A stretch of 37,376 nucleotides of DNA, taken from positions 1-37,376 of the forward strand of contig WRII01000027.1 in the NCBI GenBank assembly GCA_009782825.1, given 5' to 3'. Below the pieces are notes generated by a model, which saw only the letters and a program-made list of their open reading frames with translations, ran no database searches and had not been told where the DNA came from. Positions within the stretch are counted from its first letter, which is position 1. Each line of letters begins with the position of its first letter. This stretch comes from Peptococcaceae bacterium. Its GTDB lineage: Bacteria; Bacillota; Desulfitobacteriia; Desulfitobacteriales; Syntrophobotulaceae. The translations under genes and the position numbers were made by a program. Shown here one piece after another: positions 3,410 through 37,020 of the stretch.

Positions 3410-4842
3410 CATCTGAACATATACAAAATCTGCTTGCCAATGGCGAAGGTTTAGCAGTCGAGTTCAAGGAGTGCGTGAACACACTGAATAATAGTGTCTG
3501 GGAGACAGTCTGCTCATTCTCTAACCGTTATGGAGGACATCTCATTCTCGGCGTGTCGGATGACGGAACGCCAATAGGCGTAAATCCTCAAGCTGCACTA
3601 CAAATGAAAAAGAATTTTGCCAGCATGTTAAACAATCCGCAGAAAACATCACCATCGCTGTTCTTAAGCCTCGAAGAAGTGGAATTGGCCGGCAAACTTC
3701 TGCTCCATACCTATATCCCAGTAAGCTCGCAGATACAGTCCTGCTCAGGCAGGATATACGACCGCAATGAAGATGGGGACTTTGACATCACAAACTCTGC
3801 CGACCTTGTGGCGCATTTGTCTATACGCAAGTTAAACCAGTTCACAGAACGGGAGGTATTTCCTTACGCAACTTTAGACGACCTGCGCCTTGATCTTATC
3901 CTTCAAGTAAAGAGAATGGCAGTTGGGCGTATTCCGGGTCACCCATGGAAAGACATGACCGATATGGAGCTGTTTAAAAGCGCCGGATTGTACGAAAGCG
4001 ACCTGCGGACAGGCAAGAAAGGTTTCAATCGCGCTGCCATACTGCTGTTTGGACGGGAAGAGGTCATCCAGCAAGTTGCACCTGGATATGTTACCGATTG
4101 CCTGTTGCGCGTTAGGAACAAAGACCGCTACGACGACAGGCTGCGTGTGGAAACCAATCTTATTGAGAGTTTTGATGTCCTTATGGAATTTATCTCTAAG
4201 CACACCAATGACCCATTCTTCTTGATAGACAATCTGAATGTAAGCGTGAGAAGTCACATAGCCAAGGAAATCGTTTCAAACATCCTTGTTCATCGAGAGT
4301 TCTCAGGTACATTTCCGGCACGCATCATCATAGAGCAAGACCGCCTTATCGCAGAAAACTGGAACCGCGCCCTTCGCCACGGACGTATAGACCCAGAAAA
4401 TTTTGAGCCATATCCGAAGAACCCTATACTTGCCCGATTTTTTGTTAATATCGGTTACGCGGACACGCTCGGCTCAGGCGTTCGCAACCTTGTGAAGTAT
4501 ACGAAGCTTTATTCAGGTGGAGAGCCGGAACTGATTGAAGGCGAAATATTCAGGACTATTATCCCGCTTGGCACTAATGTGCCAGTTTCTGTTGCCGATA
4601 AAGTTGCCGATAAGTTGCCGATAAAAGTTGCCGATAAATTGACTGTAGCTGAAATAACATTCTTGAAGTTGCTTGAACCCTATCTCCATGAACACGAATG
4701 GATAACAAACGCTGAAGCGAGGGAAATTACCGCAAAAGCGGAAGGAAGTGTAAAACGGTTTCTGCATAACCTTGTGGATAAAGGGGTGCTTGAAATCCGC
4801 GGCGGAAATAAGAACCGCCAGTACCGATTATGTAAGACTTAG
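3406..4842 (+). CDS. AlbA_2 (Schlafen-like 'divergent AAA') plus HATPase_c_4 domain protein with a C-terminal winged-HTH-like region. Putative nucleic-acid-binding regulator or defence-associated ATP-binding protein
   Basis: The N-terminal segment GEGLAVEFKECVN...FSNRYGGHLILGVSDDGTPIGV matches the AlbA_2/Schlafen core. The C-terminal segment NPILARFFVNIGYADTLGSGVRNL matches the HATPase_c_4 signature. An internal VADK(L/V) tandem peptide repeat is encoded by gttgccgataa repeats at ~4594-4650. The gene is translationally coupled to the XRE gene. Confidence 0.7.
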   Translation: MTSEHIQNLLANGEGLAVEFKECVNTLNNSVWETVCSFSNRYGGHLILGVSDDGTPIGVNPQAALQMKKNFASMLNNPQKTSPSLFLSLEEVELAGKLLLHTYIPVSSQIQSCSGRIYDRNEDGDFDITNSADLVAHLSIRKLNQFTEREVFPYATLDDLRLDLILQVKRMAVGRIPGHPWKDMTDMELFKSAGLYESDLRTGKKGFNRAAILLFGREEVIQQVAPGYVTDCLLRVRNKDRYDDRLRVETNLIESFDVLMEFISKHTNDPFFLIDNLNVSVRSHIAKEIVSNILVHREFSGTFPARIIIEQDRLIAENWNRALRHGRIDPENFEPYPKNPILARFFVNIGYADTLGSGVRNLVKYTKLYSGGEPELIEGEIFRTIIPLGTNVPVSVADKVADKLPIKVADKLTVAEITFLKLLEPYLHEHEWITNAEAREITAKAEGSVKRFLHNLVDKGVLEIRGGNKNRQYRLCKT

Positions 4843-4873
4843 GGGCTGTAAGTCCCTTAAGTTTACATTGCTG
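4841..4873. repeat. Right copy of the ~30-bp repeat (AGGGGCTGTAAGTCCCTTAAGTTTACATTG) bounding the XRE/AlbA_2 cassette
   Basis: Seen directly. It overlaps the -35 box of the ileS promoter. Confidence 0.6.
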
Positions 4874-4890
4874 CTGATTTCGCTATAATA
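4862..4890 (+). promoter_or_regulatory. ileS sigma-A promoter (-35 TTTACA, 17-nt spacer, -10 TATAAT)
   Basis: The sequence gtttacattgctgctgatttcgctataat is read directly. It sits 27 nt upstream of the ileS RBS aggagg. Confidence 0.5.
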
Positions 4891-4916
4891 AATAAAGATA
4901 GGAGGTTTTAAGTCAG

Positions 4917-7733
4917 ATGGACTATAAAGACACATTAAATCTTCCGCAAACAAATTTCCCCATGCGCGGAAATTTGCCGGAACGGGAACCGGCTATCCTG
5001 AAAAAATGGGAAGAAAAGGACATCTACCGTCGCGTGCAGACCGCGCGTCACGGGTGTCCAAAATTCGTTCTGCATGATGGACCTCCCTATGCCAACGGGG
5101 CGCTGCATATGGGGCATGCTTTGAATAAAATTTTGAAGGATTTAATTATTCGGTACAAGACCATGGCCGGGTTTGACGCCCCTTATGTCCCGGGCTGGGA
5201 CACCCATGGCCTGCCCATCGAGCAGCAGGTGATCAAAACCTTGGGTGTCAACCGCAAAGCTGTGGATGTGGGCGAGTTTCGTAATCGTTGCCGGGATTAT
5301 GCTCTGGAGTATGTGGATATCCAAAGAGAACAGTTTAAGATGCTTGGGGTTCTTGGAGATTGGGAAAACCCTTATCTGACACTTACCCCGGAATATGAGG
5401 CGGAACAGATCGGCGTCTTTGGCGCCATGGCGCAAAAAGGGTTCATCTACAAGGGGCTGAAACCTGTCTACTGGTGCCCGTCCTGCGAAACAGCTTTGGC
5501 CGAGGCGGAGATTGAGTATGCGGATCGGCGCTCCATGGCGCTCTTTGTCAGGTTTCCTGTCAAAGAGGGTAAGGGAATTCTGCCTGATCAGCCAGACAGA
5601 TCTTGCTCCCTGGTCATCTGGACAACAACGCCCTGGACGCTGCCGGCCAACCTGGCCGTTTGTCTGCATCCAGAATATGAGTACGCCCTTGTCCGCGGAA
5701 ACGACAGTAACGGAATTTTAATGGTCGTAGCCTTAGATCTTTTGGACTCCTTGAGACCCCAATGGGGGATGGAGCTTCCTGTTGAAAAAACCTTCCTGGG
5801 CCGGGATCTGGAAGGCATCGTCTGCCAACACCCCTTATGTGACCGTAATTCCGTTGTCATTATGGGAGATCATGTGACGCTGGAGCAGGGAACCGGATGT
5901 GTACACACAGCCCCGGGACACGGTGTTGATGACTTCGCTGTCGGCCGCGCCAACGGATTGGAAGTTCTGTGTCCGGTAGACTTTCAAGGAAAATTCACCA
6001 CAGAAGGGGGGCCCTACGCCGGGCTCAAAGTCCGGGAAGCCGATTCCCGTATTGTAGAAGACCTGCAGCAGTCGGGCCAGCTGGTTCTATCAGAAAACGT
6101 AACACACAGTTATCCCCATTGCTGGCGCTGCAAGAACCCCATTATTTTCCGCGCTACAGAGCAGTGGTTTGCTTCTATTGATGGATTCCGCCAGGAAGCC
6201 TTGACGGAAATTGATAAGGTTCGCTTTATTCCGCCTTGGGGTCGGGACAGAATCTATAACATGATTGCTGATCGGGGAGATTGGTGTATTTCGCGGCAGA
6301 GAACCTGGGGCGTCCCTATTCCGATCTTTTATTGTGACAGCTGCGAAGGCGAGATTATCACACCGGAGACCATTGCTCATGTGCAGCAGCTCTTCCGCCA
6401 GGAAGGGTCGTCAGCATGGTTTGCGCGGTCAGCCGAGGAGCTTTTGCCGCCCAACTTCGTCTGTTCCTGCGGGGGCACAACCTTTCATAAGGAAACGGAC
6501 ATTATGGATGTCTGGTTTGATTCCGGCAGCAGCCATATGGCCATATTGCGGCGCCGTCCGGAACTCACCTGGCCGGCGGATATGTATCTGGAAGGCTCTG
6601 ATCAGCATCGGGGATGGTTCAATTCCTCACTGTCCACCTCCGTGGCTATCACCGGACAAGCGCCGTATAGGGCCGTTTTGACCCACGGATTTCTTGTGGA
6701 TGAGAAGGGTATCAAGGTGTCCAAATCCTTAGGCAACTATGTTGACCTGCTCAAAGTCATCAAAGACATGGGAGCCGATATCATCCGCCTTTGGGTGGCC
6801 GCTTCCGATTATCAGAATGATGTGGCTGTTTCTCCCCGCATTATGAAACAGATGACAGAGGCCTACCGCAAAATCCGCAATACTTTACGCTTCCTGTTAG
6901 GCAATCTCTATGATTTTAACCCTCAGGAACACGCGATTCCTTATGACGCCCTTACTGAAATTGACACATGGATTTTGGCCAAGCTGGCGGCTCTGATTGA
7001 CCGCTGCCGTCAAGCCTACGATGACTATGAATTCCATACCGTATATCATAGCCTCCATAATTTTTGCACGATTGAGCTGAGTTCGATCTATATGGACATC
7101 ACCAAAGACCGCCTGTATGTTGAGGACAAAACCTCCCTCCTGCGCCGCAGCGCTCAAACAGTGATGAATGAAACAGTGGAGGCTCTCTTGCTTCTGCTGG
7201 CTCCTATTTTGGCGTTCACCACGGATGAGGCTTGGGAGTATTTGCCTTCCGTTCGCTGTCGAAACTCTGGAGACTCACAAGAATCTGAGAATCAAATCAT
7301 CCAATCCGCCTTTATGCCTGAAGTGGATCCTCACTGGCGCAATCCGGATATCCTGGAAACTTGGGAAGCCATCCTGATGCTGCGCGGGGAAATCACCAAG
7401 GCTCTGGAAAGCGCCCGGCAAAACAAACAGATCACCCATTCTTTGACGGCTCACGTGCAATTGTATCCGTCCGATGCCGATCAGGAAGCGTTTTTGCGGG
7501 GTATCCCTCGCCTTCAGGATGTGGTCATCGTCTCTCAGCTGACAATTTATCCGGCCAAAACCCCGGCGCCTTCTCAATCGTGTCCGGCTCAGGACTTCCC
7601 TGGCCTGGTCATCGCTATTGATATGGCGCAAGGGGAAAAATGTGAGCGCTGTTGGATGTACAGCGTGGATGTGGGCCGCGATACGGCGCACCCGGATCTG
7701 TGTCCCCGGTGCTGTAAGGTTTTATCATCATAA
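4917..7733 (+). CDS. ileS: Isoleucine--tRNA ligase
   Basis: 938 aa. Canonical N-terminus [21 protein letters not shown]. The HIGH-type motif [14 protein letters not shown] and the KMSKS motif KVSKSLGN are present. A C-terminal zinc-binding Cys cluster (CERCWMY...CPRCC) is present. Confidence 0.97.
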
Positions 7734-7787
7734 ATTGCTGTAAGGTTTTATCATCATATTGCGATAAGGTCTTATCATCATAAATTA
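7710..7787. repeat. Three tandem ~25-bp copies of (A)TTGCTGTAAGGTTTTATCATCATA spanning the ileS stop codon
   Basis: Read directly: gctgtaaggttttatcatcataa / ttgctgtaaggttttatcatcata / ttgcgataaggtcttatcatcataa. Confidence 0.8.
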
Positions 7788-7801
7788 AAGGAGTATTTTC
7801 T

Positions 7802-8407: not shown

Positions 8408-8419
8408 GAAGCGGGAAAC

Positions 8420-8482
8420 CAAAGCCAAGTGAGCAGAATAAAACCAAGTAAGTAGAATAAAGCCAAGTGAGTAGAATCACTC
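8420..8482. repeat. Intergenic tandem repeat, ~19-bp unit AGCCAAGTGAGTAGAATAA, x3-4, between pduL and lspA
   Basis: Read directly: agccaagtgagcagaataa / aaccaagtaagtagaataa / agccaagtgagtagaatca. Confidence 0.8.
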
Positions 8483-8491: not shown

Positions 8492-9193
8492 TTGGGGGTT
8501 GGTATTTTGTATTATATTTGGATTATTGCAGCTGTCATTTTTCTTCTGGATCGTATCACCAAGCTCTTGGTCATCTCCAACATTAGTCTCGGTACCAGTT
8601 GGCCTGTCATTCACAATTTCTTTTATCTATCACATGTGCAGAATCAAGGCGCCGCCTTTGGCCTGTTTGCGGGCGGCACCCCTTATTTTATTGTTTTTAC
8701 TCTGGTGGTGGGGTGTGCCGCCGCCTTGCTCCTGCGCAAAATGATATCCCACTTGACGAAACCTATCGCCATCTGTCTCGGCTTGATCATTGGCGGAGCT
8801 CTGGGTAACTTTGTTGACCGGGTGTATTGGGGATATGTTGTGGATTTTCTGAATTTTAATTTATTTCCCTTCGTTTTCAACCTTGCGGACAGCGCTCTGG
8901 TGGTGGGCAGCTTCATGCTTGCGGGATTGATGTTTTTTGGTGAAAATACCAAAGCAAAAAAGTTGGAAATGAAAGGGACTGTGGAAGCCGTGGAAACCGT
9001 GCAAGCCCCGGAAACTGTGGAAGCCGTGGAAACCGTGTCTGTGGACGAAGAAGATGAGTCCGGGAAAACGAGTGCCCCTGCAGGAAGGGAAGATGCGCCC
9101 ACAGACACGGATGATGCAGCTGAAGAAGAAGATGTGTCTCAGGAAGAAGAAGATATCCCTGCGGAAATGGAGGCTAGTGCAGCACTCCATTAG
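8492..9193 (+). CDS. lspA: Lipoprotein signal peptidase II with an acidic, repeat-containing C-terminal extension
   Basis: Four transmembrane segments. Conserved motifs NLGTSWPVIHNFFYLSHVQNQGAAFG and VVDFLNF...FNLAD are present (the catalytic Asp lies in the FNLAD box). It sits in the conserved ileS-lspA-rluD position. The start is probably the TTG at 8492, next to the RBS aggag. The last ~90 aa are a Glu/Asp-rich tail with a VEAVETV x2 repeat. Confidence 0.9.
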   Translation: MGVGILYYIWIIAAVIFLLDRITKLLVISNISLGTSWPVIHNFFYLSHVQNQGAAFGLFAGGTPYFIVFTLVVGCAAALLLRKMISHLTKPIAICLGLIIGGALGNFVDRVYWGYVVDFLNFNLFPFVFNLADSALVVGSFMLAGLMFFGENTKAKKLEMKGTVEAVETVQAPETVEAVETVSVDEEDESGKTSAPAGREDAPTDTDDAAEEEDVSQEEEDIPAEMEASAALH

Positions 9194-9235
9194 TAACTTA
9201 TGGACACGAAGCGTCCATAAAAAACAAGAAAATCC

Positions 9236-9295
9236 CTGACCACTAACCACTGACCACTAACCACTAACCACTGACCACTTGCGGGCGTAGCCCGC
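9236..9295 (+). ncRNA. Intercistronic repeat element, copy 2 (six CTGACCAC/CTAACCAC heptamers, then TTGCGGGC-gta-GCCCGC hairpin), immediately upstream of the rluD RBS
   Basis: The sequence ctgaccactaaccactgaccactaaccactaaccactgaccacttgcgggcgtagcccgc is read directly. It is the reverse complement of copies 1 and 3, and so has the same orientation as local transcription. Confidence 0.6.
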
Positions 9296-9307
9296 GCTAG
9301 GAGATTA

Positions 9308-10321: not shown

Positions 10322-10378
10322 GGCATATTTTTTCTGTAAATGCTCTATAAATGCTTATAAAATGCTTATAAATCCCAT

Positions 10379-12063: not shown

Positions 12064-12158
12064 CCTCCTCTTCTCTTTGATTCTGGTGCAAGCCTCTTTA
12101 AATTCTACTATAAGTCACATCTTGTGACAATATGGGTAATTTGATTTATTATTATTAA

Positions 12159-12257
12159 TCAACTATGATGATATCAACTTGATGATATCAACTATGATGA
12201 TATCAACTTGATGATATCAACTATGATGATATCAACTATGCTCAATAATATCAACTG
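12159..12257. repeat. Tandem array, 6 copies of a 14/15-bp unit TGATGATATCAACT(A), in the divergent region upstream of pyrR
   Basis: Read directly: caactatgatgatatcaacttgatgatatcaactatgatgatatcaacttgatgatatcaactatgatgatatcaactatgctcaataatatcaactg. Confidence 0.85.
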
Positions 12258-12275
12258 TGTAGAAGCGAGAAAATA

Positions 12276-12843: not shown

Positions 12844-13830
12844 ATGCTGGGAAATCACAAAGACCTTCTGGGCATTGAACAATTAACTTCTCAGGATATC
12901 CATCACATATTTAAAACCGCGGCCACAATGAAGGAAATTCTGGAGCGGCCCATTAAGAAGCTGCCGACTTTGCGCGGCAAAGGGGTAGGCATGCTCTTCT
13001 ACGAAGCCAGCACGCGGACGCGGGTATCCTTTGAAACGGCCGCAAAAACATTGGGAGCCGATGTAGGATCCTTTGCGGTAACGACCAGCAGTGTCAACAA
13101 AGGGGAATCCTTGCTGGATACGGCAAAAACTCTGCAGGCCATGAAGTTTGATCTCATTGTTGTCCGGCATGCCAGTTCGGGCGCCGGCGAGTTTTTAGCC
13201 CGCAACTTGAATGCCGGTATTATCAATGCCGGCGACGGCCAGCATGAACACCCTACCCAAGCTTTGCTGGACGCTTTTACCCTTTATGAAAAGTTTGGTC
13301 AACAGGGCGAGGCAGGACACGGCAGGGAAGGCCGGACAAGCCCCGATAGCTCTCTCTTCGCCGGGCGCAAAATTGTCATTGTCGGGGATATCCTCCACTC
13401 CCGGGTGGCACGCAGCAACGCCCTGTGTTTGCAGCGATTAGGCGCTGACGTCACCTTTGTGGGTCCCCCGACCTTGCTGCCTCCGGAAATGGCCTGCTGC
13501 GGCGTCACGTTATCTCATGATTTGGACATCAGCCTTAGGGGCGCCGATGCGGTTATGGCGCTGCGCCTTCAGTTGGAACGGCAGCAGAGCGGATTGTTCC
13601 CCTCTGTGCGTGAATACACGGCTCTCTATGGATTAACATCGGCCAGGCTGGCCCAAGCCAATTGTGCGACAGGTCAGACTCCCTTGGTGCTGCATCCGGG
13701 ACCCATGAACCGAGGTGTGGAAATTGACAGTGTCTTGGCCGACAGTCTCCAGTCTATGATTGAAGAACAAGTCACTAACGGCGTCGCTATTCGTATGGCA
13801 CTTATATATTTGCTTATTGGGGGTAATTAA
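12844..13830 (+). CDS. pyrB: Aspartate carbamoyltransferase catalytic subunit
   Basis: Motifs ASTRTR, HPTQALLD and HPGP are present. An in-frame ATG at 12844 follows the RBS aaggga. The longer ORF from 12706 overlaps pyrR and is unlikely. There is a ~17-aa insertion (QQGEAGHGREGRTSPDSS) relative to typical PyrB. Confidence 0.9.
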   Translation: MLGNHKDLLGIEQLTSQDIHHIFKTAATMKEILERPIKKLPTLRGKGVGMLFYEASTRTRVSFETAAKTLGADVGSFAVTTSSVNKGESLLDTAKTLQAMKFDLIVVRHASSGAGEFLARNLNAGIINAGDGQHEHPTQALLDAFTLYEKFGQQGEAGHGREGRTSPDSSLFAGRKIVIVGDILHSRVARSNALCLQRLGADVTFVGPPTLLPPEMACCGVTLSHDLDISLRGADAVMALRLQLERQQSGLFPSVREYTALYGLTSARLAQANCATGQTPLVLHPGPMNRGVEIDSVLADSLQSMIEEQVTNGVAIRMALIYLLIGGN

Positions 13831-20789: not shown

Positions 20790-20805
20790 AGATACATCTC
20801 CTAAA

Positions 20806-20846
20806 GCGGGCTGCACCCGCAAGTGGTCAGCGATCAGTGGTTAGGG
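20806..20846 (-). ncRNA. Intercistronic repeat element, copy 3 (GCGGGC-tgca-CCCGC hairpin plus heptamers), immediately upstream of the histidine kinase RBS
   Basis: The sequence gcgggctgcacccgc-aagtggtcagcgatcagtggttaggg is read directly. It lies between the radical SAM gene and the histidine kinase, both on the minus strand. Confidence 0.6.
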
Positions 20847-20928
20847 ACTTGTAAGCGCAGGCAATATTCGCAGCGATTACCCTCTATATTTTGGCTCGTA
20901 GTGGACAATTATAATTATCCATTATTTT

Positions 20929-26042: not shown

Positions 26043-27821
26043 ATGCAAGTTACTTATCAATACGCCGGTCCCTCCAAGCTTGTGCGGCATCCCGATCATG
26101 TTACTTTCGGCATGAGCCCGGATCTGTCGCGAGAAGAAAAGGTCTCCTTTGTGGGGAAGTTGAAAAATCCCCTCATCTTTCGGGACGCCATGCTCATGCT
26201 CAGAAAAATTATTGTGTCGGATGCCCGGCAGAAAAAAAAGGAACGCACAGAATTTTTCCAATGGCTGAACGGGGAAATTGAGAGACGCATACAAGAACAC
26301 GAACAGGATCTGCCCGGCGTCAGAGACGCCCTGCAGCAGGAGATCGAAGCTTTGCTCCAGGACATGGCCGGCAAAGACACGGCTCTGGCCCAGCTTGTCA
26401 AAACTCGCAAAAAGATTAGCCAAGAGATAGAAAAGTCCGACGCCTGGCGCGACTATCATAAGCTGGAAAAAAAGTTTTGGCAGTTTATCCGCGACCGGGA
26501 CAGAGACTTATGGTTCGTCCTTGATCCTGTGATCACGGTGCATCCGGATCAAGTTTCCTTTGAAGCCTTCTCTCTGGATGAATCCATATACGGCTGTCTG
26601 TCTATAGGCATGGATGAATTTGATCTGCGCGCCGAACCCAAGCTGGGTACGACCAACATTGACTTTTCCGCCAAACTCGCTCAGGAAATGGAACGGTTTC
26701 GCACCTACTCAGATGTGGAACTCTCTGTGAACCCGGAAGGATTCACCGTAGATACAGGCATCCTTCCCGACTATATCGAAAAGAAAATTGACCTGCCTGA
26801 TACATGGATCAAAGGCTTCACCCAAGTTTCGTCAGCGGCCAATCTAAGCGGCGCAGAGATCTCTTTGACTCCGGTGGATATGTATGACATCTGTTCCTTT
26901 TTGCGGCGGCATAAGGCCCAAAAGAGCCCCAGGCATATGACATGGATTCTGAAAAAAGACCACCCTGTAACAGTACGCTTTGAGCCCTTTGGTCACGAAC
27001 TCACGTTACAGGCGATTTACCACGGCGACAAGGACAGGGAAGAAAAAATATGGGGCCGGCAGCGCTGGCTTGTGGCTGAGAAGCTTCTCCCTCTGGCCAA
27101 GTCCTTTACTGTCAAGCTATTGGGGTTTGGTATGCCTCAGTTTATCATCGCAGATTTAGGAAATATGAACATGACCATCGGCTTTTCTTCCTGGTCCGCC
27201 AACGACTGGGTTAAAGGAACAGCTTTTAACATTATGAGCGGCTTCATCGGAGAAGGGAACTACAGAGAAGTTTATGCCCTGCTCAAACAAAAACGCTCCA
27301 TGACGGTAAACGACATCTGCAGCCAGATCCAATCCCGCACACGAAACACAACCCTTTCCGGTATCGGCAGCCTGCTCAAGCGGGGAGAAGGGTACTTTGA
27401 CGCTGTCAATACCCAGGTACGCTTCCGCCAGCTGTGCAATACCCCCATCCCGCAGGAACTGTACGCCACAACGGAAGCGGAACTCCGAGTGACAAGGTGT
27501 TTGGATGCCGGGATGGATCTTTTCCGTATGAGGCTGTCAGAAAAGAATGAGTATGTTTTTACGAATTCCTATTTGGACAGAGATCCGCTGCGAACACAGC
27601 ACAAGGCACAGCATGAGACAGAAATCATGATTGATGAAGACGGTCAGATTGGTCGTGTGGTATGCTCATGCAAAGAATTCAAAAGAGGGCCGCGCAATAT
27701 CTCCGCACCATGCCCCCATATTTTAGCCCTATACATCACCGCCGCGAAATTCACCCGGCTCAGGCTGGAGCAGGGGAGAGTGTATGGGATCAATGATATT
27801 ATGGAGGTGGTGCTATCATGA
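26043..27821 (+). CDS. 592-aa protein with a C-terminal SWIM-type zinc finger. Second gene of the RT-associated operon
   Basis: RBS gggagg. The C-terminal VVCSCKEFKRGPRNISAPCPHILALY gives the CxC...CxH SWIM pattern. Its stop overlaps the RT start (ATGA). Confidence 0.65.
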   Translation: MQVTYQYAGPSKLVRHPDHVTFGMSPDLSREEKVSFVGKLKNPLIFRDAMLMLRKIIVSDARQKKKERTEFFQWLNGEIERRIQEHEQDLPGVRDALQQEIEALLQDMAGKDTALAQLVKTRKKISQEIEKSDAWRDYHKLEKKFWQFIRDRDRDLWFVLDPVITVHPDQVSFEAFSLDESIYGCLSIGMDEFDLRAEPKLGTTNIDFSAKLAQEMERFRTYSDVELSVNPEGFTVDTGILPDYIEKKIDLPDTWIKGFTQVSSAANLSGAEISLTPVDMYDICSFLRRHKAQKSPRHMTWILKKDHPVTVRFEPFGHELTLQAIYHGDKDREEKIWGRQRWLVAEKLLPLAKSFTVKLLGFGMPQFIIADLGNMNMTIGFSSWSANDWVKGTAFNIMSGFIGEGNYREVYALLKQKRSMTVNDICSQIQSRTRNTTLSGIGSLLKRGEGYFDAVNTQVRFRQLCNTPIPQELYATTEAELRVTRCLDAGMDLFRMRLSEKNEYVFTNSYLDRDPLRTQHKAQHETEIMIDEDGQIGRVVCSCKEFKRGPRNISAPCPHILALYITAAKFTRLRLEQGRVYGINDIMEVVLS

Positions 27822-29386
27822 GACAAGAACACTATCGAGCTGTCCATGATATGGGAAAAAAAGAATATACCCTGCTCAAAATGCAGGAATACGGCTTTTG
27901 GCCGGAAGATCTGCCGACGCCCTATGAAAGGCAAGCGCACGAATCCGCGCAAGACTACAACAAGAGACAAGCCCTCTTCAAGGAATATGAGCAGATCGCT
28001 GGTCGGATAGCCAATTTGTATAGTGAGAAAGACGAGATCAATACCCGGTTAAAAGACTTACGGAAACACTATGATCAGACATGGGATTATGAAAAGATAA
28101 GGAAAGACGTCGCCCAAACCATCCTGCGGGAATCCCTGGCCCGGCGCGCGGAAAGAAAACGACAGAAAGAACTTCAGAAGCAAAGGATCTCTGAAGCCTG
28201 GCAAAAACGCAAGGCCGAAAGTATTGTTTTCATTGGCCGGGGCTATTCGGGGCTGCTCTCTGATAAGACCGGCGACGCGGACAAACTGCGCGCCTCCAAT
28301 CTGCCCCTCATCCCTGACGATAAAGCCCTAGCCGCTCTTCTTGGCCTTACGTATACAGAGCTGCGTTTTTTGGCCTATCACAGAGATGTGGTTGTGGCCG
28401 ATCATTACCACCGGTACGAGATTCCTAAAAAGAATGGCGGACACAGACGTATTGCCGCGCCAAAGCCGCTGCTCAAAAAGACCCAAAGAAAGATCTTGGA
28501 ACTCATATTGGAGAAAATAGATATCTCGGAACAGGCTCACGGGTTCGTGAAAGGGCGATCTGTAGTCACCGGCGCTCAAGCTCATAAAACTCATATCGGA
28601 AATCCTTCGCTGCTGATCACTCTCGACCTGGAAGATTTCTTTCCCACCATTACTTTTGAGCGCGTCCGAGGCCTTTTTAAATCTTTTGGCTATTCAGGGT
28701 ATATTGCCTCACTTTTGGCTATGATATGCACCTATTGCGAACGCGTGCCCATTGAAGTCAAAGGTCAGATCAAATATGTACGATCCTCTGAGAGAATCCT
28801 CCCGCAAGGATCCCCGGCCAGCCCCATGATTACAAATATCATCTGCCGCAGGATGGACGCCAAGATCAGAGACCTCGCCACGAACTTCCCGTCCGGCCAC
28901 CCTGTCCAGTCCGGTCACCCTGCCCAGTCCGGTCACCCTGTCCAATCCGGTCACCCTGCCCAAACAAATTCCCCTGCGAGCTGCCGGTGTACATATACAC
29001 GGTACGCCGATGATATGAGCTTTAGCTTTGACAGCACCTTGCCCATAGACGCGGAACACATCAAAAAATTCATCCACCAAATTCAGCGCATCGTCCACAG
29101 CGAAGGTTTTAAAATTAATAAACAGAAAACACGCTATCTAAAACACAACAACAGACAAGCCGTCACTGGCATTGTCATTAATAATGAAGAGATCTCTGTT
29201 CCCAAGGTATGGCTCAAAAAGATGAGAGCGGCCCTCTATAATGCCAAAAAGCAAAAAGAACAGGGGACTCTTGATCCCGGCAAAATACATGAGATAGCCG
29301 GCATGGCCTGCTGGTTGAACTCCGTGAATCCCACCAAGTACAAAAAAATGATTGATGAAGCCAAGGATTTGCAAAGCTCGTCTTAG
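27818..29386 (+). CDS. Reverse transcriptase of retron/retron-like type with a ~190-aa basic coiled-coil N-terminal extension
   Basis: RT motifs are in order: IPKKNGGHRRIAAP (1/2), GFVKGRSVVTGAQAH (retron-type NAxxH-like box), LDLEDFFPTI (A), LPQGSPASPMITN (B'), YTRYADDMSF (C), and NRQAVTGIVINNEE plus LKKMRAALYNAK (the retron-specific RxVTG(L/I)xVN thumb motif). A 4x SGHP(V/A)Q repeat insertion sits between motifs B' and C. The RBS ggaggtgg is present. Confidence 0.85.
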   Translation: MRQEHYRAVHDMGKKEYTLLKMQEYGFWPEDLPTPYERQAHESAQDYNKRQALFKEYEQIAGRIANLYSEKDEINTRLKDLRKHYDQTWDYEKIRKDVAQTILRESLARRAERKRQKELQKQRISEAWQKRKAESIVFIGRGYSGLLSDKTGDADKLRASNLPLIPDDKALAALLGLTYTELRFLAYHRDVVVADHYHRYEIPKKNGGHRRIAAPKPLLKKTQRKILELILEKIDISEQAHGFVKGRSVVTGAQAHKTHIGNPSLLITLDLEDFFPTITFERVRGLFKSFGYSGYIASLLAMICTYCERVPIEVKGQIKYVRSSERILPQGSPASPMITNIICRRMDAKIRDLATNFPSGHPVQSGHPAQSGHPVQSGHPAQTNSPASCRCTYTRYADDMSFSFDSTLPIDAEHIKKFIHQIQRIVHSEGFKINKQKTRYLKHNNRQAVTGIVINNEEISVPKVWLKKMRAALYNAKKQKEQGTLDPGKIHEIAGMACWLNSVNPTKYKKMIDEAKDLQSSS

Positions 29387-29401: not shown

Positions 29402-29600
29402 GCATAGGTTTTTTGGCAGGTATGCTATGGTGTTGCGCCATAGTTGAGGAATGTTATGTATACATCACCAAATTGTGCGCAATTCGCTTCGCATCGACTA
29501 ATGGCGCCTTAAAATCTATCCTACGGTGTAGGCGCCATTAGTCGAGCTCCGCTGAAGTGTCACAATTAGATGAGAGATCTTTTAGCAAAAAACCTATGAG
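29402..29600 (+). ncRNA. Candidate retron msr/msd-like non-coding RNA downstream of the RT. The a1-like arm is 29403-29416 and the a2-like arm 29585-29598. The central 15-bp perfect hairpin is 29494-29508 / 29531-29545
   Basis: cataggttttttgg pairs with gcaaaaaacctatg (12 contiguous bp plus 2). Between the arms, tcgactaatggcgcc-N22-ggcgccattagtcga forms a perfect 15-bp stem. A further hairpin is ctatggtgttgcgccatag. No ORF spans the region. Confidence 0.35.
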
Positions 29601-30632: not shown

Positions 30633-31742
30633 TCATTCCCCATATCCCATCAGTCCTCGGACAGACACCTCACTTGCATTTAACGCCAAAGTCTCTCCTG
30701 TGGGAAGCTGCACAATCAATTCTCCGGCAGGGTTGAGGGCAACAGCTCGTCCGCAAATCTCTTTATTGTGGTAAATCGCCTTGATCTCCCGGCCCAAAGT
30801 TACACAGTTGTCTTGGTAAAGAGGAAGAATATCCGTGACAAATTTATGCCGTATAAGGAGATCATACAGAGGTTCAAAACAATTGAGAATAGCAGCAGCC
30901 AAGGAAGTAAGTTGAAAAGTTTCAATTTGTTGAGATTTTTCAACCCGTGAATACGCTCTTTTTGTCTCTAGGAACAAAGAAGTCGCTGAATCCGCCAATT
31001 CCGGCGGAAATGAAGAAATATGCACATTGACGCCGATACCCACCACCAACGCTTTAATATGTTCAACCTCAGCTGTCAGCTCTGTGAGAATTCCCGCAGC
31101 CTTCTTATTATTGAGAAGAATATCATTCGGCCATTTAATGACGGGTTGCAAAGCGGTATTGTGCAATGTGCGTTGCAGGTGATACTCTTCATCCGTTCCT
31201 TTGTACATTGCTTGCTGCATGGTCTGCTGCATCACCTGCTGCATCTCCTGCTGCATGGCCTGCTGCACGGCCAATCCGGCAGCCAAGGTCACTTGGGCCG
31301 CATTATTGATAGGAATCTCAGGACGCAGCAGGAGAGACATCATAAGACATGTATGCCGTGGAGCATACCAGGCACGACCCAGACGGCCCCGTCCCGCTGT
31401 CTGTTCCTGAGCGGCAAACACAGCTCCATGGACGGCCCCGTTTTCCGCCGCATGCAAAGCCTGCCGGTTGGTGGATTCGACACTTTCATAAAGAGTCAGG
31501 CTGCGGCCCAAATATTCAGTGGTCAACAGAGATTGCAGATCATCAGCCTGCAAAATATCCGGGCTGGCCGTGAGACGATAGCCCCGGTTTGTCACAGCTT
31601 CAATTGTATAACCATCCTCTTGCAAAGCCTTGATTGTTTTCCAGACAGCAGAGCGAGTCACCTCCAGGACACGGCTGATGTCCGCCCCAGAGATAAAACT
31701 GTCCGGTTTTTGGCGCAAAAGAAAGAGCACATCATCTTTCAT
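30633..31742 (-). CDS. birA: Bifunctional biotin--[acetyl-CoA-carboxylase] ligase / biotin operon repressor
   Basis: N-terminal wHTH (ISGADISRVLEVTRSAVWKTIKALQ). The ligase core has the biotin-binding motif QTAGRGRLGRAW and KWPNDILLNNKKAAGIL. C-terminal SH3-like domain. An in-frame MQQ(x)MQQ pentad repeat insertion (QQAMQQEMQQVMQQTMQQAM) is encoded by 12-bp repeats at ~31195-31262. Confidence 0.9.
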   Translation of the reverse strand: MKDDVLFLLRQKPDSFISGADISRVLEVTRSAVWKTIKALQEDGYTIEAVTNRGYRLTASPDILQADDLQSLLTTEYLGRSLTLYESVESTNRQALHAAENGAVHGAVFAAQEQTAGRGRLGRAWYAPRHTCLMMSLLLRPEIPINNAAQVTLAAGLAVQQAMQQEMQQVMQQTMQQAMYKGTDEEYHLQRTLHNTALQPVIKWPNDILLNNKKAAGILTELTAEVEHIKALVVGIGVNVHISSFPPELADSATSLFLETKRAYSRVEKSQQIETFQLTSLAAAILNCFEPLYDLLIRHKFVTDILPLYQDNCVTLGREIKAIYHNKEICGRAVALNPAGELIVQLPTGETLALNASEVSVRGLMGYGE

Positions 31743-31747
31743 ACACT

Positions 31748-32248
31748 CTATTTTTCCCTCTCAAAAACCGCGAAAGATTCTCCTATCATCCCTATCGTAT
31801 CTCCCTGGTAGTTCAACGCTCCTTCGGTGATTACAAAGGCAAACTGTTCAACTTCATCACCCAAAAATCCATAAAAATCTCTGGAACTCACCTTGCATTC
31901 TATTTTATCCCCATTACGGCTGTATGTCCCGTTGATATTGCCCATTCCTTCATAGAGATTTACAACCAACTCAAATGTCATATCTTCTTTCAAGATCAAT
32001 ACATTATAGTGTTCCAGTTTTGCAGAGTCGTTTTCCCTGAAAATCCATCTTCCAGTAACATCCTTGACGGTATCATTGTCCTGATTGTTCTGATTGTTCT
32101 GATCAGTATTATTCTGTTGGGAATTCGTCCGATCCGTATTATTGTTTTGTTCTAAAATAGTATTTGTAGTACATCCCGCCATAAAGAATACCGCCATAAC
32201 AACCACAGCCACAAACATCACGATCCATTTAACTTGACTTTTGTTCAT
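31748..32248 (-). CDS. Hypothetical lipoprotein with an Asn/Gln-rich linker, co-transcribed upstream of birA
   Basis: Signal peptide with lipobox-like FMAGC. Low-complexity NNTDRTNSQQNNTDQNNQNNQDN linker. The RBS aaggaagg is present. Its stop lies 5 nt before the birA start. Confidence 0.55.
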   Translation of the reverse strand: MNKSQVKWIVMFVAVVVMAVFFMAGCTTNTILEQNNNTDRTNSQQNNTDQNNQNNQDNDTVKDVTGRWIFRENDSAKLEHYNVLILKEDMTFELVVNLYEGMGNINGTYSRNGDKIECKVSSRDFYGFLGDEVEQFAFVITEGALNYQGDTIGMIGESFAVFEREK

Positions 32249-32436
32249 CTGTCTAACACCTTCCTTAAAATAATAGAAACCCTATCATACGTAAAATATA
32301 CTTAATATTTTGCATCTTAGCAAGATTTATAATACTCTCTTTTTGCATACCCCGGAACAGATGGCTGAAAGTGTTGACCAGATATATTCGCGACAAAAAC
32401 GAGGGAGGGAAGAGGGGGCTATAACCACAGACCACA

Positions 32437-32510
32437 AGGCAGGGCTGCAGAGCTATGACCACACTGCAGGGCACCTGCAGGGCTATGACCATTGCAGGGC
32501 TATGACCACT
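32437..32510. repeat. Intergenic tandem repeat (unit ~GCAGGGCTATGACCA, 3-4 copies) upstream of wecB
   Basis: Read directly: gcagagctatgaccacact / gcagggcacct / gcagggctatgaccatt / gcagggctatgaccact. Confidence 0.75.
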
Positions 32511-32585
32511 CGCCAAATCCCATCATATGATGTACAATAGAGACGTGTAAAAACATTACGCAGAATTGACAGAAAGGCTCAGATC

Positions 32586-33713
32586 ATGTCAGAAAAAAAA
32601 AGAATCATGAGCGTCTTTGGAACCCGCCCCGAAGCCATTAAAATGGCGCCGCTGGTTCAAGCCTTGCATGGCCATCCTCAGATTGAAAGCTTGGTCTGCG
32701 TCACCGGTCAACACCGGGATATGCTGGATCAAGTGCTCACCATTTTCTCCATCACCCCCGATATCGATCTGAATATCATGCGTTTCAATCAAGATCTCAC
32801 TTCCATTACCACACGAACCCTAGAAGGATTAGCGCCGGTTTTAGCCGAATATCAACCTGATTTGATCCTCGTCCACGGAGATACCACCACATCAGTCTCC
32901 GCAGCCCTGGCAGCCTTCTACCAGAAAATCCCTGTCGCTCATGTGGAAGCCGGGCTGCGCTCCCAGGATCCATATTCCCCGTTCCCTGAAGAAATGAACC
33001 GCTGCCTGATCAGCCGTCTGGCCCGGCTGCACTTTGCGCCCACAGAGTCCAATGCCAACAACTTACGGCAAGAACATATCCAAGGTCTGATCGAAGTCAC
33101 CGGGAACACCGTCATTGACGCGCTGCTCTCTATGGTCTATGATGCCTACACATTCCAACACCCCCTTCTGAGTGACTTCAATTTTGCCGCAGGCCCTGCC
33201 ATTTTGCTGACAGCCCACCGCCGGGAAAACTTCGGCCAGCCGATTTACAACATATGCCAAGCTGTGCGGCGCCTGCTCCAAGACCATCCCTCTTTGCGGG
33301 TTATCTATCCGGTTCATCCCAATCCGCAAATCCAGGAACCCGTCAGAGACTATCTGGAAGGCGTTCAACGCCTCAATTTGATTGCTCCGCTGGACGTCCA
33401 AGAGATGCACAATCTGATGGCCCGCTGCACCTTTGTGATGACAGATTCCGGCGGACTGCAGGAAGAAGCCCCCGCTTTAGGCAAGCCCGTTCTCGTTCTC
33501 CGCACGGAAACAGAGCGCCCGGAAGCCGTTGCGGCGGGAACTGTCGAAGTCGCCGGAGTCGAGGAAGAAAAGATCTATCAATCAGCCCACGCCCTGTTAA
33601 CAGACCCGCAGAAATTTGACCGGATGGCCATGGCCGTTAACCCTTACGGAGACGGTCATGCCTGTGAGCGCATCGTGGCCTGTATTGAAAAATGGGCTGG
33701 TATTCGAACCTGA
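32586..33713 (+). CDS. wecB: UDP-N-acetylglucosamine 2-epimerase (non-hydrolysing)
   Basis: The N-terminus VFGTRPEAIKMAPL, and the segments HGDTTT and HVEAGLRS, are hallmark Epimerase_2 motifs. 375 aa. Confidence 0.9.
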   Translation: MSEKKRIMSVFGTRPEAIKMAPLVQALHGHPQIESLVCVTGQHRDMLDQVLTIFSITPDIDLNIMRFNQDLTSITTRTLEGLAPVLAEYQPDLILVHGDTTTSVSAALAAFYQKIPVAHVEAGLRSQDPYSPFPEEMNRCLISRLARLHFAPTESNANNLRQEHIQGLIEVTGNTVIDALLSMVYDAYTFQHPLLSDFNFAAGPAILLTAHRRENFGQPIYNICQAVRRLLQDHPSLRVIYPVHPNPQIQEPVRDYLEGVQRLNLIAPLDVQEMHNLMARCTFVMTDSGGLQEEAPALGKPVLVLRTETERPEAVAAGTVEVAGVEEEKIYQSAHALLTDPQKFDRMAMAVNPYGDGHACERIVACIEKWAGIRT

Positions 33714-33766
33714 CGACCCTCAAAACCTGGCGAACCTCAGACCCTGACGACCCTCAGACCCTCAAG
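33705..33766. repeat. Short tandem/interleaved repeat (GAACCTGACGACCCTCA / GACCCTCAG units) at the wecB 3' end and in the wecB-cdaA spacer
   Basis: Read directly: cgaacctgacgaccctcaaaacctggcgaacctcagaccctgacgaccctcagaccctcaag. Confidence 0.7.
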
Positions 33767-33787
33767 TAAAAGTAGGAGCCTGAACAC

Positions 33788-34609: not shown

Positions 34610-34626
34610 TTCAGGAGGTTATAGGC

Positions 34627-35607
34627 ATGAACATCAAGATTCGTCATCTCTTCAGCCGTAATATAGGTTATAAAATTTTCTCTGTGGTGTGCGCTGTCAT
34701 CGTTTGGTTTGTGGTCACAGGACAGGCGGAGACATTCAGCTTTCTTGGCACCAAAACCGTCCCCGTACAAGTTGAACTGCGAAACACCCCGGCTAATCTG
34801 ATTGTCCTTAATGAGCTGCCAACTATTCATGTGGATGTCAGCGCTCAAAACAGCGATAAAGAAATCCATGCCTATATTGACCTCGAAAATGCCGCCATTA
34901 ATACCGACACCGGGCCAACCTCTTACACCATCAAAGTCGATCCCGGAGAAGGAGGCACTGTAAAAAAGGTTAGTCCCAGCACCCTCCCTCTGGATATTGA
35001 CAAGTTAAGTGATAAGTCGATGCATGTCGAGACCCAGATAATAGGAAAACCAGCCAAAGGATATGTGGCGGGAGATCCTATTCTGACCCCCAGTGAAGTA
35101 GTGGTCAGAGGACCTCAAAGCATCATCGACAAGATGGAAAAAGTGGGGGTGGAAGTCAATATCGACGGCGCAGACAGTACATTGCGCACATCCCGTCCCA
35201 TTGTGTATAAGGATTTTGGCGTATTCAACATTTTTTCTCCTGATCCCGAATATAAGAGATTGACAGCTTTGACAGGGGCTGTGGATGTCATTGTCCCCAT
35301 TTATGAAGCCGGCAGTATAAGTAAAATAGTCCCTCTCAGCGTCACCATCGACGGAACAGTTGCCAACGGATATGAAGTGCTCTCCGCTGAACCGCTGCCT
35401 GCCGTCATAACACTGATCGGTCCTGAGCAGACGCTGGCTGAGATCTCTGAAGTTCATCTCGGCGCCCTCTCTGTTGACGACCTGAACAGCAGCAAAGTTT
35501 TCGACATTGACTCCGCGGCTCTCTCTCTGCCGGAAAAGGTCATCATGGTTCTGGATACAAAAATCAAGGTTCTAATCAGCCTCCATGATAAGATAGTTAA
35601 TATCTAA
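34627..35607 (+). CDS. cdaR: CdaA regulatory protein CdaR (YbbR-like repeat protein)
   Basis: N-terminal transmembrane anchor followed by repeated YbbR-like beta modules. It occupies the conserved position between cdaA and glmM. ATG at 34627 after the RBS ggagg. The annotated ORF start at 34600 overlaps cdaA. Confidence 0.8.
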   Translation: MNIKIRHLFSRNIGYKIFSVVCAVIVWFVVTGQAETFSFLGTKTVPVQVELRNTPANLIVLNELPTIHVDVSAQNSDKEIHAYIDLENAAINTDTGPTSYTIKVDPGEGGTVKKVSPSTLPLDIDKLSDKSMHVETQIIGKPAKGYVAGDPILTPSEVVVRGPQSIIDKMEKVGVEVNIDGADSTLRTSRPIVYKDFGVFNIFSPDPEYKRLTALTGAVDVIVPIYEAGSISKIVPLSVTIDGTVANGYEVLSAEPLPAVITLIGPEQTLAEISEVHLGALSVDDLNSSKVFDIDSAALSLPEKVIMVLDTKIKVLISLHDKIVNI

Positions 35608-35637
35608 AGTCATTACGAAAGGAAGTCGTGCATAGAT

Positions 35638-37020
35638 ATGGAAAAACTATTTGGAACTGACGGTGTCCGCGGTATAGCCAATAGAGATCTGACACCGGAG
35701 CTGGCTTTTCGCCTTGGGCAGGCCGCTGCCTACCATCTGGGAAAACAGAGGACTTCGGACACCCCCCCCAAGGCAGAGACGAAAGGAAAATTTATTATCG
35801 GACGGGATACACGGATATCCGGCAGCATGCTGGAAGCCGCGCTGGCGGCGGGCATTTGCTCCATGGGCGTCGATGTGTATACCGCGGGAATTCTCCCGAC
35901 ACCGGCGGTGGCTTTTTTGACCAAAAAACTTGAAGCCTGTGCGGGGGTGGTCATCTCGGCATCCCACAATCCGGCTCCGGATAACGGCATCAAATTTTTT
36001 AGTCTGTCAGGATATAAATTTCCTGACGAGGTGGAACAAGAGATCGAAGCCCAGGTTCACCGGGATCTGGAAGGCGAAAGACCTGTGGGAGACCGTGTGG
36101 GGCGCATTATCCCTATGCCCCAAGCCGGAGAGGAATATATGGCCTTTCTGAAAGGCCTGGCGCCTTCTTTGGAGGGGCTCAACGTTGTGGTGGACTGCGC
36201 GAATGGCGCCGCGGGAGCTATCGCGCCCCGTCTTTTTAAGGCTCTGGGAGCGGCGAGTGTGATTCCGGTTTATGACAGTGTTGATGGCATGAGCATCAAT
36301 GTGATGTGCGGATCTACGCATCCTGAACGGATGTCGCAAAAAGTGGCGGCGTGTCACGCGGATTTGGGGCTGGCTTTTGACGGCGACGCCGATCGAGTTA
36401 TTGCTGTGGATGAGAATGGCTGTATCGTTGACGGAGACGCCATTATGCTTGTCTGCGCCCTCCACTTGAAGGAACGTCAGCTTTTGAGACACAATAAGAT
36501 TGTGCTGACAGTGATGAGTAATTTGGGACTGCGCCGGGCTTTGGCTGACCACGGCATTGATATCGAAGAAACGGCCGTGGGGGACCGCTATGTTTTGGAG
36601 CGGCTGCAGGCCACGGATACGGTGTTGGGCGGGGAACAGTCCGGACATATTATTTTTGCGCAGCATGCCACGACTGGGGACGGGATTTTATCAGCGTTGA
36701 AGCTGATGGAGGTCATGAAGGACACAGGAAAGAAGCTGTCGGAGTTGACAGCGCCTTTTCAGCGCTATCCTCAAGTGCTTCAAAATACCCGGGTCAAAGA
36801 TAAGGAGGCTGTTCTTCAGAGTTCTGAGCTTCGCACTGTTATTGCCCAAGTGGAGGACCGCTTGGGGGACAATGGCAGAATTTTGGTTCGTCCTTCGGGC
36901 ACAGAGCCGCTGATTCGCGTTATGCTGGAGGGTCCTGAGAAGGAAGAGCTGGAAGCTATCGCTCAGGAAGTGATTGATGTGATTGATGGGGTTGATGGGG
37001 TTGATGGGGTTGGGGAATAA
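35638..37020 (+). CDS. glmM: Phosphoglucosamine mutase
   Basis: MEKLFGTDGVRGIAN. The active-site motif GVVISASHNPAPDNGIKFF has the phospho-serine. GEQSGHIIF is present. It carries an 18-aa insertion (GKQRTSDTPPKAETKGKF). The C-terminal tail repeat VIDVIDGVDGVDGVGE is encoded by gttgatgggg x3. Confidence 0.92.
   Translation: MEKLFGTDGVRGIANRDLTPELAFRLGQAAAYHLGKQRTSDTPPKAETKGKFIIGRDTRISGSMLEAALAAGICSMGVDVYTAGILPTPAVAFLTKKLEACAGVVISASHNPAPDNGIKFFSLSGYKFPDEVEQEIEAQVHRDLEGERPVGDRVGRIIPMPQAGEEYMAFLKGLAPSLEGLNVVVDCANGAAGAIAPRLFKALGAASVIPVYDSVDGMSINVMCGSTHPERMSQKVAACHADLGLAFDGDADRVIAVDENGCIVDGDAIMLVCALHLKERQLLRHNKIVLTVMSNLGLRRALADHGIDIEETAVGDRYVLERLQATDTVLGGEQSGHIIFAQHATTGDGILSALKLMEVMKDTGKKLSELTAPFQRYPQVLQNTRVKDKEAVLQSSELRTVIAQVEDRLGDNGRILVRPSGTEPLIRVMLEGPEKEELEAIAQEVIDVIDGVDGVDGVGE

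Follow-up and report, generated by a model that had tools for sequence, protein, structure and literature searches.

Proliferation of short repeats has been described as a transient route of prokaryotic protein evolution (Persi, Wolf, Karamycheva, Makarova & Koonin 2023; PMC10120016). The prokaryotic low-complexity regions of that study are slippage repeats in genes, which are lineage-specific and transient, hit proteins of ancestral function and fade by mutation (PMC10120016); in these respects they resemble the tandem arrays reported here, which were found in a 37 kb contig (WRII01000027.1, 37,376 nt; hereafter the window, meaning the whole stretch of DNA analysed) of a short-read metagenome-assembled genome (MAG) of a Peptococcaceae bacterium (GCA_009782825.1; GC ~49%). 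Whereas the published work documents a general statistical trend, the present case concerns one clade, with arrays at ~4-6x background density, with BirA, GlmM, LspA and PyrC among the proteins affected, and with a stronger intergenic signal. In the reading that we consider likely, the clade as a whole has an excess of short local tandem duplications, on which selection for frame and position acts as a filter before they decay by mutation. The mechanism is textbook knowledge and already described; of interest are the degree of the excess, its spread over a clade and its occurrence in essential enzymes.

Several other described systems share individual features with these arrays. Bacterial variable-number tandem repeat (VNTR) loci, including those of multiple-locus VNTR analysis (MLVA), have units of ~6-100 bp, lie often in frame in genes, are made by slippage and are defined by copy-number polymorphism between strains. 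The arrays described here likewise consist of head-to-tail slippage units, but those in coding DNA hold 2-5 imperfect units, are invariant in the available data and lack the high unit identity of VNTR loci; units of 100% identity were found only in the intergenic arrays at 12158 and 9239. Plasmodium falciparum and Dictyostelium carry, throughout their lineages, repetitive inserts in the loops of housekeeping enzymes, attributed to slippage and weak selection; these are eukaryotes of extreme base composition with homopolymer-like inserts, whereas the GC content here is ~49% and the units measure 9-36 bp. Ogata et al. reportedly described in 2000 that Rickettsia palindromic elements (RPEs) occur in frame in conserved genes, and our case is similar in that extra peptide segments are tolerated on the surfaces of conserved essential proteins; however, RPEs stem from a palindromic mobile element that is dispersed, whereas the inserts here are local tandem duplications without dispersed copies. 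For a composite intergenic element of the window, and for this element only, parallels are offered by the heptanucleotide short tandemly repeated repetitive (STRR) sequences of cyanobacteria and by intergenic repeats of the repetitive extragenic palindrome (REP), bacterial interspersed mosaic element (BIME) and miniature inverted-repeat transposable element (MITE) types, with which it shares intergenic tandem heptamers, GC-rich palindromic hairpins and many dispersed copies in both orientations. It differs from them in phylum and sequence, and in that its heptamer is genome-specific while its hairpin and A-rich framework is conserved in two genomes. Contingency loci of Haemophilus, Neisseria and Helicobacter have units of 1-7 nt, the length of which switches the frame or the promoter spacing of surface and virulence genes (PMC4081817, PMC12721329). 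Slippage at tandem repeats, some of them in promoters or 5' regions, is common to both cases; since every coding period in the window is a multiple of 3 and the host genes have housekeeping functions, an on/off switch is impossible and the arrays are not phase-variation loci.

Array density in the window and in related genomes

Arrays were defined as Tandem Repeats Finder (TRF) matches with a score of >=50, with overlapping rows merged. By this definition the window contains 16 arrays (0.43/kb), compared to a mean of 0.13 arrays in dinucleotide-preserving shuffles of the window. As a control of real sequence, 160 diverse bacterial loci were fetched around pyrB and glmM, with a total of 2.17 Mb; at their density of 0.070 arrays/kb, 2.6 arrays would be expected in the window (Poisson P = 2e-8). 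A metagenome scan with GlmM returned only relatives at <=50% identity, which served as background controls and not as close comparators.

The two loci obtained from a sister MAG (GCA_009778595.1; L172 and L177, 42 kb together) contain 13 arrays (0.31/kb; 2.95 expected, P = 1e-5), and the one locus of a third MAG (GCA_009783315.1; L180) contains 5 arrays in 17.8 kb (0.28/kb), while the loci of the nearest outgroups (Dichloromethanomonas and others) have 0-0.17 arrays/kb. Both related MAGs are thus at 0.28-0.31 arrays/kb against a background of 0.07, and each carries different, non-homologous arrays; private in-frame arrays of the sister MAG lie in HtpG ((ETQ)n), BirA (SPIPSY), PyrC (RDAAx/QDAAI x5) and a P-type ATPase. 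An earlier note on this DNA, made from the sequence alone, had proposed a comparison of repeat density with related species, and on the level of loci the window and the two related MAGs stand above the overall density of the controls. The WRJI and WRHI accessions of the related MAGs fall inside the range WQRH-WRNX of a published set of 589 MAGs from the guts of higher termites, 16 of which are Peptococcaceae (PMC7024585); from this we infer that the habitat of the lineage is the gut of higher termites.

Nine arrays (0.27/kb) lie in coding DNA, which accounts for 91% of the window, and seven (2.04/kb, ~8x the coding density) in the 3.4 kb of intergenic DNA. The period is a multiple of 3 in 9/9 coding arrays but in only 2/7 intergenic ones (Fisher p = 0.005). 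With all coding periods multiples of 3 and intergenic periods arbitrary, the pattern argues for sequence-blind duplication followed by selection against frameshifts. The repeats had been presented in the earlier note as in-frame features of genes; this restriction did not hold, as intergenic DNA is the denser compartment and its periods are mostly not multiples of 3. In addition to the seven repeats known from that note, TRF found two further coding arrays (19010-19045 and 32075-32103) and seven arrays in intergenic DNA or at gene boundaries.

Coding arrays and lineage-specific inserts

All seven peptide repeats of the earlier note, which had placed them correctly to within a few bases, are encoded by head-to-tail DNA repeats, and the identities of the repeat-bearing genes were confirmed with Pfam. 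The nearest species-level genomes belong to Ca. Dichloromethanomonas, Desulfosporosinus and MAGs of Desulfitobacteriaceae, at 55-67% protein identity. The comparison for lineage specificity covered LspA, the hybrid histidine kinase, BirA and GlmM, the AlbA_2 and lipoprotein arrays having no relatives to compare. As an alternative to active minisatellites, ancient inserts shared with distant orthologues had been considered; no compared relative carries any of the arrays. The arrays thus have the properties of slippage-derived repeat expansions, namely head-to-tail DNA copies, units taken from local native sequence (GlmM VID, histidine kinase I.IDGLN and the ileS 3' end) and absence from the compared orthologues.

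That the repeats arise in the DNA, through slippage-type duplication of local sequence, is seen in AlbA_2, at the end of ileS and in an array that starts at the stop codon of the epimerase gene (33706-33762); the slippage or repeat expansion invoked in the earlier note is largely upheld. The AlbA_2/Schlafen-like protein (4591-4638, + strand) has four copies of the 12-bp unit GTTGCCGATAAA, read as VADK VADK LPIK VADK, in the linker from the HATPase_c_4 region to the C-terminal part. LPIK is the VADK unit one base out of frame, with an A lost in one copy and gained in the next, both in A runs; as a frameshifted version of the same DNA unit, it points to duplication of DNA and not of peptide. At the 3' end of ileS (7710-7786, + strand), the last 8 codons with the stop (CCKVLSS*) were duplicated twice more downstream, as 26/24-bp units; because a stop codon is part of each unit, the extra copies are untranslated.

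LspA carries an 18-bp unit (VEAVET) x3.2 in its cytoplasmic C-terminal tail (8981-9037, + strand). The array lies within an acidic tail of ~85 aa, and both relatives with an lspA orthologue are without this tail. In GlmM, a 9-bp unit x4.6 forms the C-terminus (36972-37012, + strand), with the sequence VID VID GVD GVD GVG; the sister protein ends in ...EVIDKIDAVQ and the window protein in ...EVID VID GVD GVD GVG E, the 9-bp units having expanded the native end. A putative lipoprotein has a 9-bp unit x3.2 (QNN/QDN) in its N-terminal low-complexity linker (32075-32103, - strand). As a side observation on proteins that differ in length between the two genomes, the CdaR (YbbR) protein of the sister MAG (L172, 6523-7770) has an extra C-terminal segment of ~89 aa compared to that of the window (34627-35607), with 415 versus 326 aa.

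The hybrid histidine kinase harbours three segments of this kind. In the REC-Hpt linker (18407-18463, - strand), a 21-bp unit x2.7 encodes NINIDGL x2; this tandem duplication of 21 bp amounts to one extra copy of the native I.IDGLN motif, and the copies differ by 2 synonymous changes. An 18-bp unit x2.1 (AGGYQH/AGGLIG; 19010-19045, - strand) is part of a private 33-aa insert in the linker of kinase and receiver, and a 24-aa acidic tract, GAT-rich at the DNA level (DDGGY x2, then a run of D, H and Y; 19665-19734, - strand), occupies the hairpin loop separating N box and G1 box in HATPase_c. Ten relatives of the kinase have neither the acidic tract nor the 33-aa linker insert, and have a single I.IDGLN motif. 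The nearest relative of the gene (17823-20789, - strand) comes from one Peptococcaceae MAG, at 56% identity; the other nearest relatives (43-52%) come from Treponema, Fibrobacteres/Fibromonas, Desulfovibrionaceae and other taxa, with names that suggest termite-gut MAGs. Judged by sequence similarity, these taxa hint at gene sharing within the gut community.

In the reverse transcriptase (RT) of a type XIII retron, SGHP(V/A)Q x4 is encoded by 18-bp units nested in a 36-bp repeat (28887-28976, + strand), immediately before the YADD motif. At residue 356, where the array starts, the match to the PADLOC profile RT_XIII is interrupted, and it is this break in the family-profile match on which the privacy of the array rests. 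The RT belongs to a three-gene type XIII retron operon (23181-29386, + strand; RT_XIII 5e-151, SWIM_XIII 4e-174, WGR_XIII 5e-16, PADLOC). Downstream of the RT, a strong fold is predicted for 29403-29600 (z = -5.7), made up of an outer closing stem and, inside it, a long hairpin; the region had no match in Rfam and is a candidate msr-msd non-coding RNA (ncRNA).

BirA has a 12-bp unit (QQxM) x5 (31213-31272, - strand). In ordinary BirA proteins, ~6 residues connect the AGLAV helix to the invariant KWPND strand, whereas the window protein has QQxM x5 and a further 20 residues at this place. The three closest relatives are without the QQxM array. One of them (P0007) has an unrelated Ser/Pro insert in the same loop, with its own SPIPSY repeat; another (P0008) has a different insert in the loop and a CPPGSS...CPRGSS insert elsewhere; and the closest (P0009), which has no MQQ array, has at a second site a 12-aa insert in common with the window protein, though diverged. 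In an AlphaFold2 model built with 68 homologues (predicted local distance difference test score 89, predicted template modelling score 0.88), the catalytic core is unchanged; the array is predicted to extend the native surface helix (H145-180) and to return by a short helix, with a confidence of 66-81, and the second insert is disordered. Mapping of insertions onto structures, as proposed earlier, would thus place the BirA array in a surface helix outside the catalytic core. All nine coding arrays are peripheral, in loops, a helix extension, linkers or tails, and the claim that essential enzymes tolerate insertions is borne out by the arrays in BirA, GlmM and LspA and by an insert in PyrC.

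The non-repetitive insertions claimed for PyrB, PyrC, PyrK and GlmM are present in alignments to orthologues, and the nearest species-level genomes are without those in PyrB, PyrC and PyrK. PyrB has an 18-aa insert (QQGEAGHGREGRTSPDSS; 13300-13353, + strand) at the junction of its two domains; the same site holds a diverged insert in the sister MAG and none in the seven nearest genomes outside the clade. PyrC has a private 13-aa insert (IKHNANTQNTLPV; 13927-13965, + strand) in a variable N-terminal loop, which is missing even from a relative of 78% identity; the RDAAx/QDAAI x5 array of the sister PyrC is at the C-terminus. The PyrK insert of ~22 aa (GRQGFSK...RPGFQGH; 15524-15595, + strand) contains echoes, at the peptide level, of the flanking native LGQGFSL and probably copies native GQGFS; a different insert occupies the same site in the sister. 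With diverged inserts at the PyrB and PyrK sites of the sister MAG, these insertions predate the split of the two genomes while still being confined to the clade; the alternative of ancient inserts therefore applies to them within the clade, though not to the outgroup genomes, which lack them. A search for cryptic DNA repeats in the three Pyr inserts found one 10-nt near-repeat only, in PyrB. It is plausible that such non-repetitive inserts descend from former arrays, and an age series can be laid out from private near-perfect arrays to the PyrB and PyrK inserts and the 12-aa BirA insert, which have the same sites in relatives and diverged sequence. Apart from its inserts, the pyr operon of the window is without carAB, which in Dichloromethanomonas sit between pyrC and pyrK.

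To describe the age of the coding arrays, units were compared to each other and to the array consensus. The units are imperfect, with 72-95% matches in TRF and differences of 0-28% between units, and differ from the consensus by 11 synonymous and 10 non-synonymous changes (proportion of synonymous differences, pS, ~0.15; of non-synonymous differences, pN, ~0.04; ratio ~0.26). By these sequence comparisons, the data, few as they are, indicate that the coding arrays would postdate the separation from the sister genome, yet be far from fresh. The assemblies available for comparison were ENA ERZ27257305 (megahit k141), Logan SRR6220664 and SRR5248970, and JGI 3300002505, which effectively represent one strain. 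Over 3805-37376 they match the window without real mismatches, except for one 29-bp repeat unit and one N in the JGI contig; on the right side all stop near 37.39 kb, and the left end is covered by short contigs only. A C15 homopolymer and, after it, T-rich runs open the window (1-35), and the other assemblies end within ~20-40 bp of this start, which is probably a contig end or a low-complexity assembly boundary. Two apparent single-nucleotide polymorphisms between assemblies were dismissed, one being an N and the other lying at a contig end, and do not represent strain diversity. Differences in gene length between assemblies were likewise traced to gene-calling on identical DNA (radical SAM protein, 257 versus 290 aa; YbbR, 333 versus 326 aa; a sister gene, 319 versus 376 aa).

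All nine coding arrays (9/9) are identical in every assembly that covers them, with 1-4 sample accessions per array, only one for the arrays at 4.6-9 kb, and effectively one strain throughout. The only copy-number difference is found in the intergenic array at 12158-12240, which is also the only long array with identical units: the ERZ27257305 contig has exactly one 29-bp unit fewer (two full units in the window versus one), with zero mismatches over 21.4 kb, and each of the two Logan contigs breaks within the array. As slippage depends on how alike the units are, a perfect 29-bp array is where a copy-number difference would be expected; the difference may reflect real heterogeneity or assembler collapse. 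Length variants were also sought through 90% clusters for six window proteins, and all six were singletons; the window proteins agree in every residue with those of a MAG labelled Peptococcaceae bacterium (MCL19182xx). The copy-number comparison proposed in the earlier note, here between assemblies, thus yielded a difference at one intergenic array and at none of those in frame, and its description of the repeats as unusually active finds no support in the coding arrays, given their ~15% synonymous divergence and their constancy in all assemblies.

Intergenic arrays and a dispersed composite element

The remaining arrays are intergenic or overlap gene boundaries. Upstream of lspA lies a 19-bp x3 array (8421-8477), downstream of rluD an 11-bp x3.5 array (10337-10373), and upstream of pyrR the 29-bp x2.8 array at 12158-12240, with units of 100% identity. 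Repeats of ATCAACT(A)TGATGAT form the array carried by the pyrR leader. The spacer of the divergent lipoprotein and epimerase genes contains a 17/30-bp array of TGCAGGGCTATGACCA-like units (32430-32508), and a 17-bp x3.2 array (33706-33762, + strand) begins at the UDP-GlcNAc 2-epimerase stop codon and continues into the spacer ahead of cdaA. Rfam at the gathering threshold gave no match anywhere in the window, so that neither the intergenic arrays nor the dispersed element described below are described RNA families. By the same gathering score, no T-box leader was found before ileS (4843-4916, where the spacer has just 74 nt), nor a PyrR-binding attenuator ahead of pyrR (12064-12275).

One intergenic heptamer array, at 9239-9279 (+ strand; units 100% identical), is embedded in a composite element of ~110 nt, which consists of an ATTAGT...CTTA start, a first hairpin (A), AAAAAACAAGAAAATCC, a heptamer tract, the sequence CTT-GCGGGC-NNN-GCCCGC and a closing NTTAG; its hairpins fold as expected. 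The window has three copies. The first (9194-9305, + strand) has six ACCACTR heptamers followed by a GCGGGC-GTA-GCCCGC hairpin and lies directly upstream of the ribosome binding site of rluD. The second (1748-1810, - strand), upstream of an SPFH/flotillin gene, has 4 heptamers (1769-1799; sub-threshold, with a TRF score of 48), and the third (20796-20850, - strand), upstream of the hybrid histidine kinase start, has 3. In the 42 kb of the sister genome there are at least 9 copies in both orientations, among them L172 ~3770-3877, 4926-5007, 13235-13410 and 18045-18115, and L177 6408-6453, 8222-8334, 15772-15893 and 19833-19936. The framework is conserved in the window and the sister, whereas the heptamer, present in 3-6 units per copy, is genome-specific (ACCACTR versus ATACTGA). 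With many intergenic copies, a conserved palindromic hairpin and both orientations, the element is dispersed in the manner of REP or MITE sequences, and the TTAG recurring at both ends is no more than suggestive of mobilisation by a transposase or of target-site duplications. A fixed role in 5' untranslated regions was considered and rejected: the three window copies face the downstream gene, but the sister copies occur in both orientations.

The third MAG has intergenic heptamers without the hairpin framework (CAATGGA x9.6, CATTGTC x12.7 and CCCACAT x6.9; tracts at L180 1352-1418, 1588-1674, 17093-17139 and 17396-17444). Heptamer satellites in intergenic DNA, their unit differing from genome to genome, appear to be a trait of the clade. 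A separate decamer, TAGGGGCTGT, occurs four times on the + strand (2725, 4840, 11437 and 29602; 0.06 expected), in each case where a gene or the candidate ncRNA ends or just beyond. A 29-nt inverted repeat (2727-2755/2856-2884), of which the decamer forms part, brackets the start of an HTH_3 gene.

Origin and fate of the arrays

The process that we consider likely would run as follows. Local tandem duplications of 7-36 bp, produced when strands slip or misalign in replication or repair, would accumulate at several times the usual bacterial density and would hit any sequence, coding or not, copying what is already there. Under purifying selection, intergenic arrays of any period would persist, while genes would retain only arrays with periods divisible by 3 that fall in surface loops, helix extensions, linkers between domains or termini; a duplicated unit that includes a stop codon would be harmless. 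Once its units diverge, an array would no longer be prone to slippage and would decay by point mutation, probably ending as a non-repetitive, lineage-specific insert. The excess itself may come from more frequent slippage, from weaker removal or from both.

Some observations weigh against this reading. Array-rich loci exist elsewhere, as 3/77 control loci of >=15 kb have 0.29-0.37 arrays/kb, which makes the window extreme but not unique. The data come from 37 kb of this genome plus ~60 kb belonging to two relatives, from which the genome-wide rate is extrapolated, and the molecular cause of the high rate or retention is something that we infer. A pN/pS of ~0.26, from only 21 differences, hints at constraint on the peptides, unlike neutral, tolerated junk, and the non-repetitive inserts retain almost no repeat trace at the DNA level.

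If the in-frame arrays were currently hypermutable minisatellites of the VNTR type, they would confer length polymorphism on the proteins of different strains. The one-unit difference in the 29-bp array of otherwise identical assemblies would fit, as would the 3, 4 and 6 heptamers in the three window copies of the dispersed element, but the former could be assembler collapse, all in-frame arrays are invariant in the covering assemblies (a comparison of low power, with effectively one strain), and their imperfect units (pS ~0.15; 2 synonymous changes in 21 nt of the histidine kinase duplicate) stabilise them against slippage; we therefore regard current hypermutability as unlikely. Retention because the arrays are useful, by selection and not by mutational excess, could apply to a BirA helical arm, to the acidic His/Asp tract of the kinase or to the acidic tails, and it draws on the pN/pS between units and on BirA, where variation falls mainly on the one x codon, those for Q, Q and M are fixed and the model predicts a regular helix. 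The sample of substitutions is small, however (21), the arrays differ from relative to relative, without homology and in different proteins, one AlbA_2 unit is a frameshifted reading, and duplicated gene ends are untranslated. The non-coding DNA moreover shows the same excess, 8-fold denser and with arbitrary periods, and this parallel excess is something that adaptive retention cannot explain; such retention may hold for some arrays, and as a general account we judge it quite improbable.

Two further explanations have very little in their favour. That a small mobile or palindromic element entered the genes in frame and gave rise to the inserts, in the manner of RPEs, is suggested by the abundance of the dispersed hairpin/heptamer element in this genome; yet a repeat search of the window found no coding insert similar to that element, to other inserts or to any other window sequence, and the inserts, which are not palindromic, repeat the adjoining native sequence in local tandem copies. 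Lacking dispersed copies, they exclude such an insertion mechanism, to which we give hardly any weight. An artefact of assembly or binning has to be considered for a short-read MAG, the more so as Logan contigs break at two of the repeats, but it is the least credible of these explanations: the arrays are base-identical from three assemblers and up to four sample accessions, reading frames are open through them, and every array measures <=90 bp, a length that should fit within one Illumina HiSeq read. The concordance of the assemblies excludes the artefact.

More speculatively, and in our estimate rather doubtfully, the clade may have a heritable tandem-duplication mutator state, due to a peculiarity of replication or repair or to an activity tied to the heptamer-bearing REP-like elements, in place of generic slippage combined with weak selection. 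If so, duplications of 7-36 bp would be seeded continually throughout the genome, the surfaces of essential enzymes would be remodelled, and intergenic heptamer satellites would have their unit replaced wholesale in each genome (ACCACTR, ATACTGA, CAATGGA). For annotation and structure prediction, lineage-specific surface inserts of this kind mean that profile matches are split, as with RT_XIII. Should the excess of local tandem duplications prove to be genome-wide, these bacteria would offer a natural system for the rates at which new peptide segments are born, tolerated and lost by decay in essential bacterial enzymes, and for what sets the rate of short tandem duplication, be it repair capacity, the population size of a host-restricted lineage or the activity of the dispersed elements.

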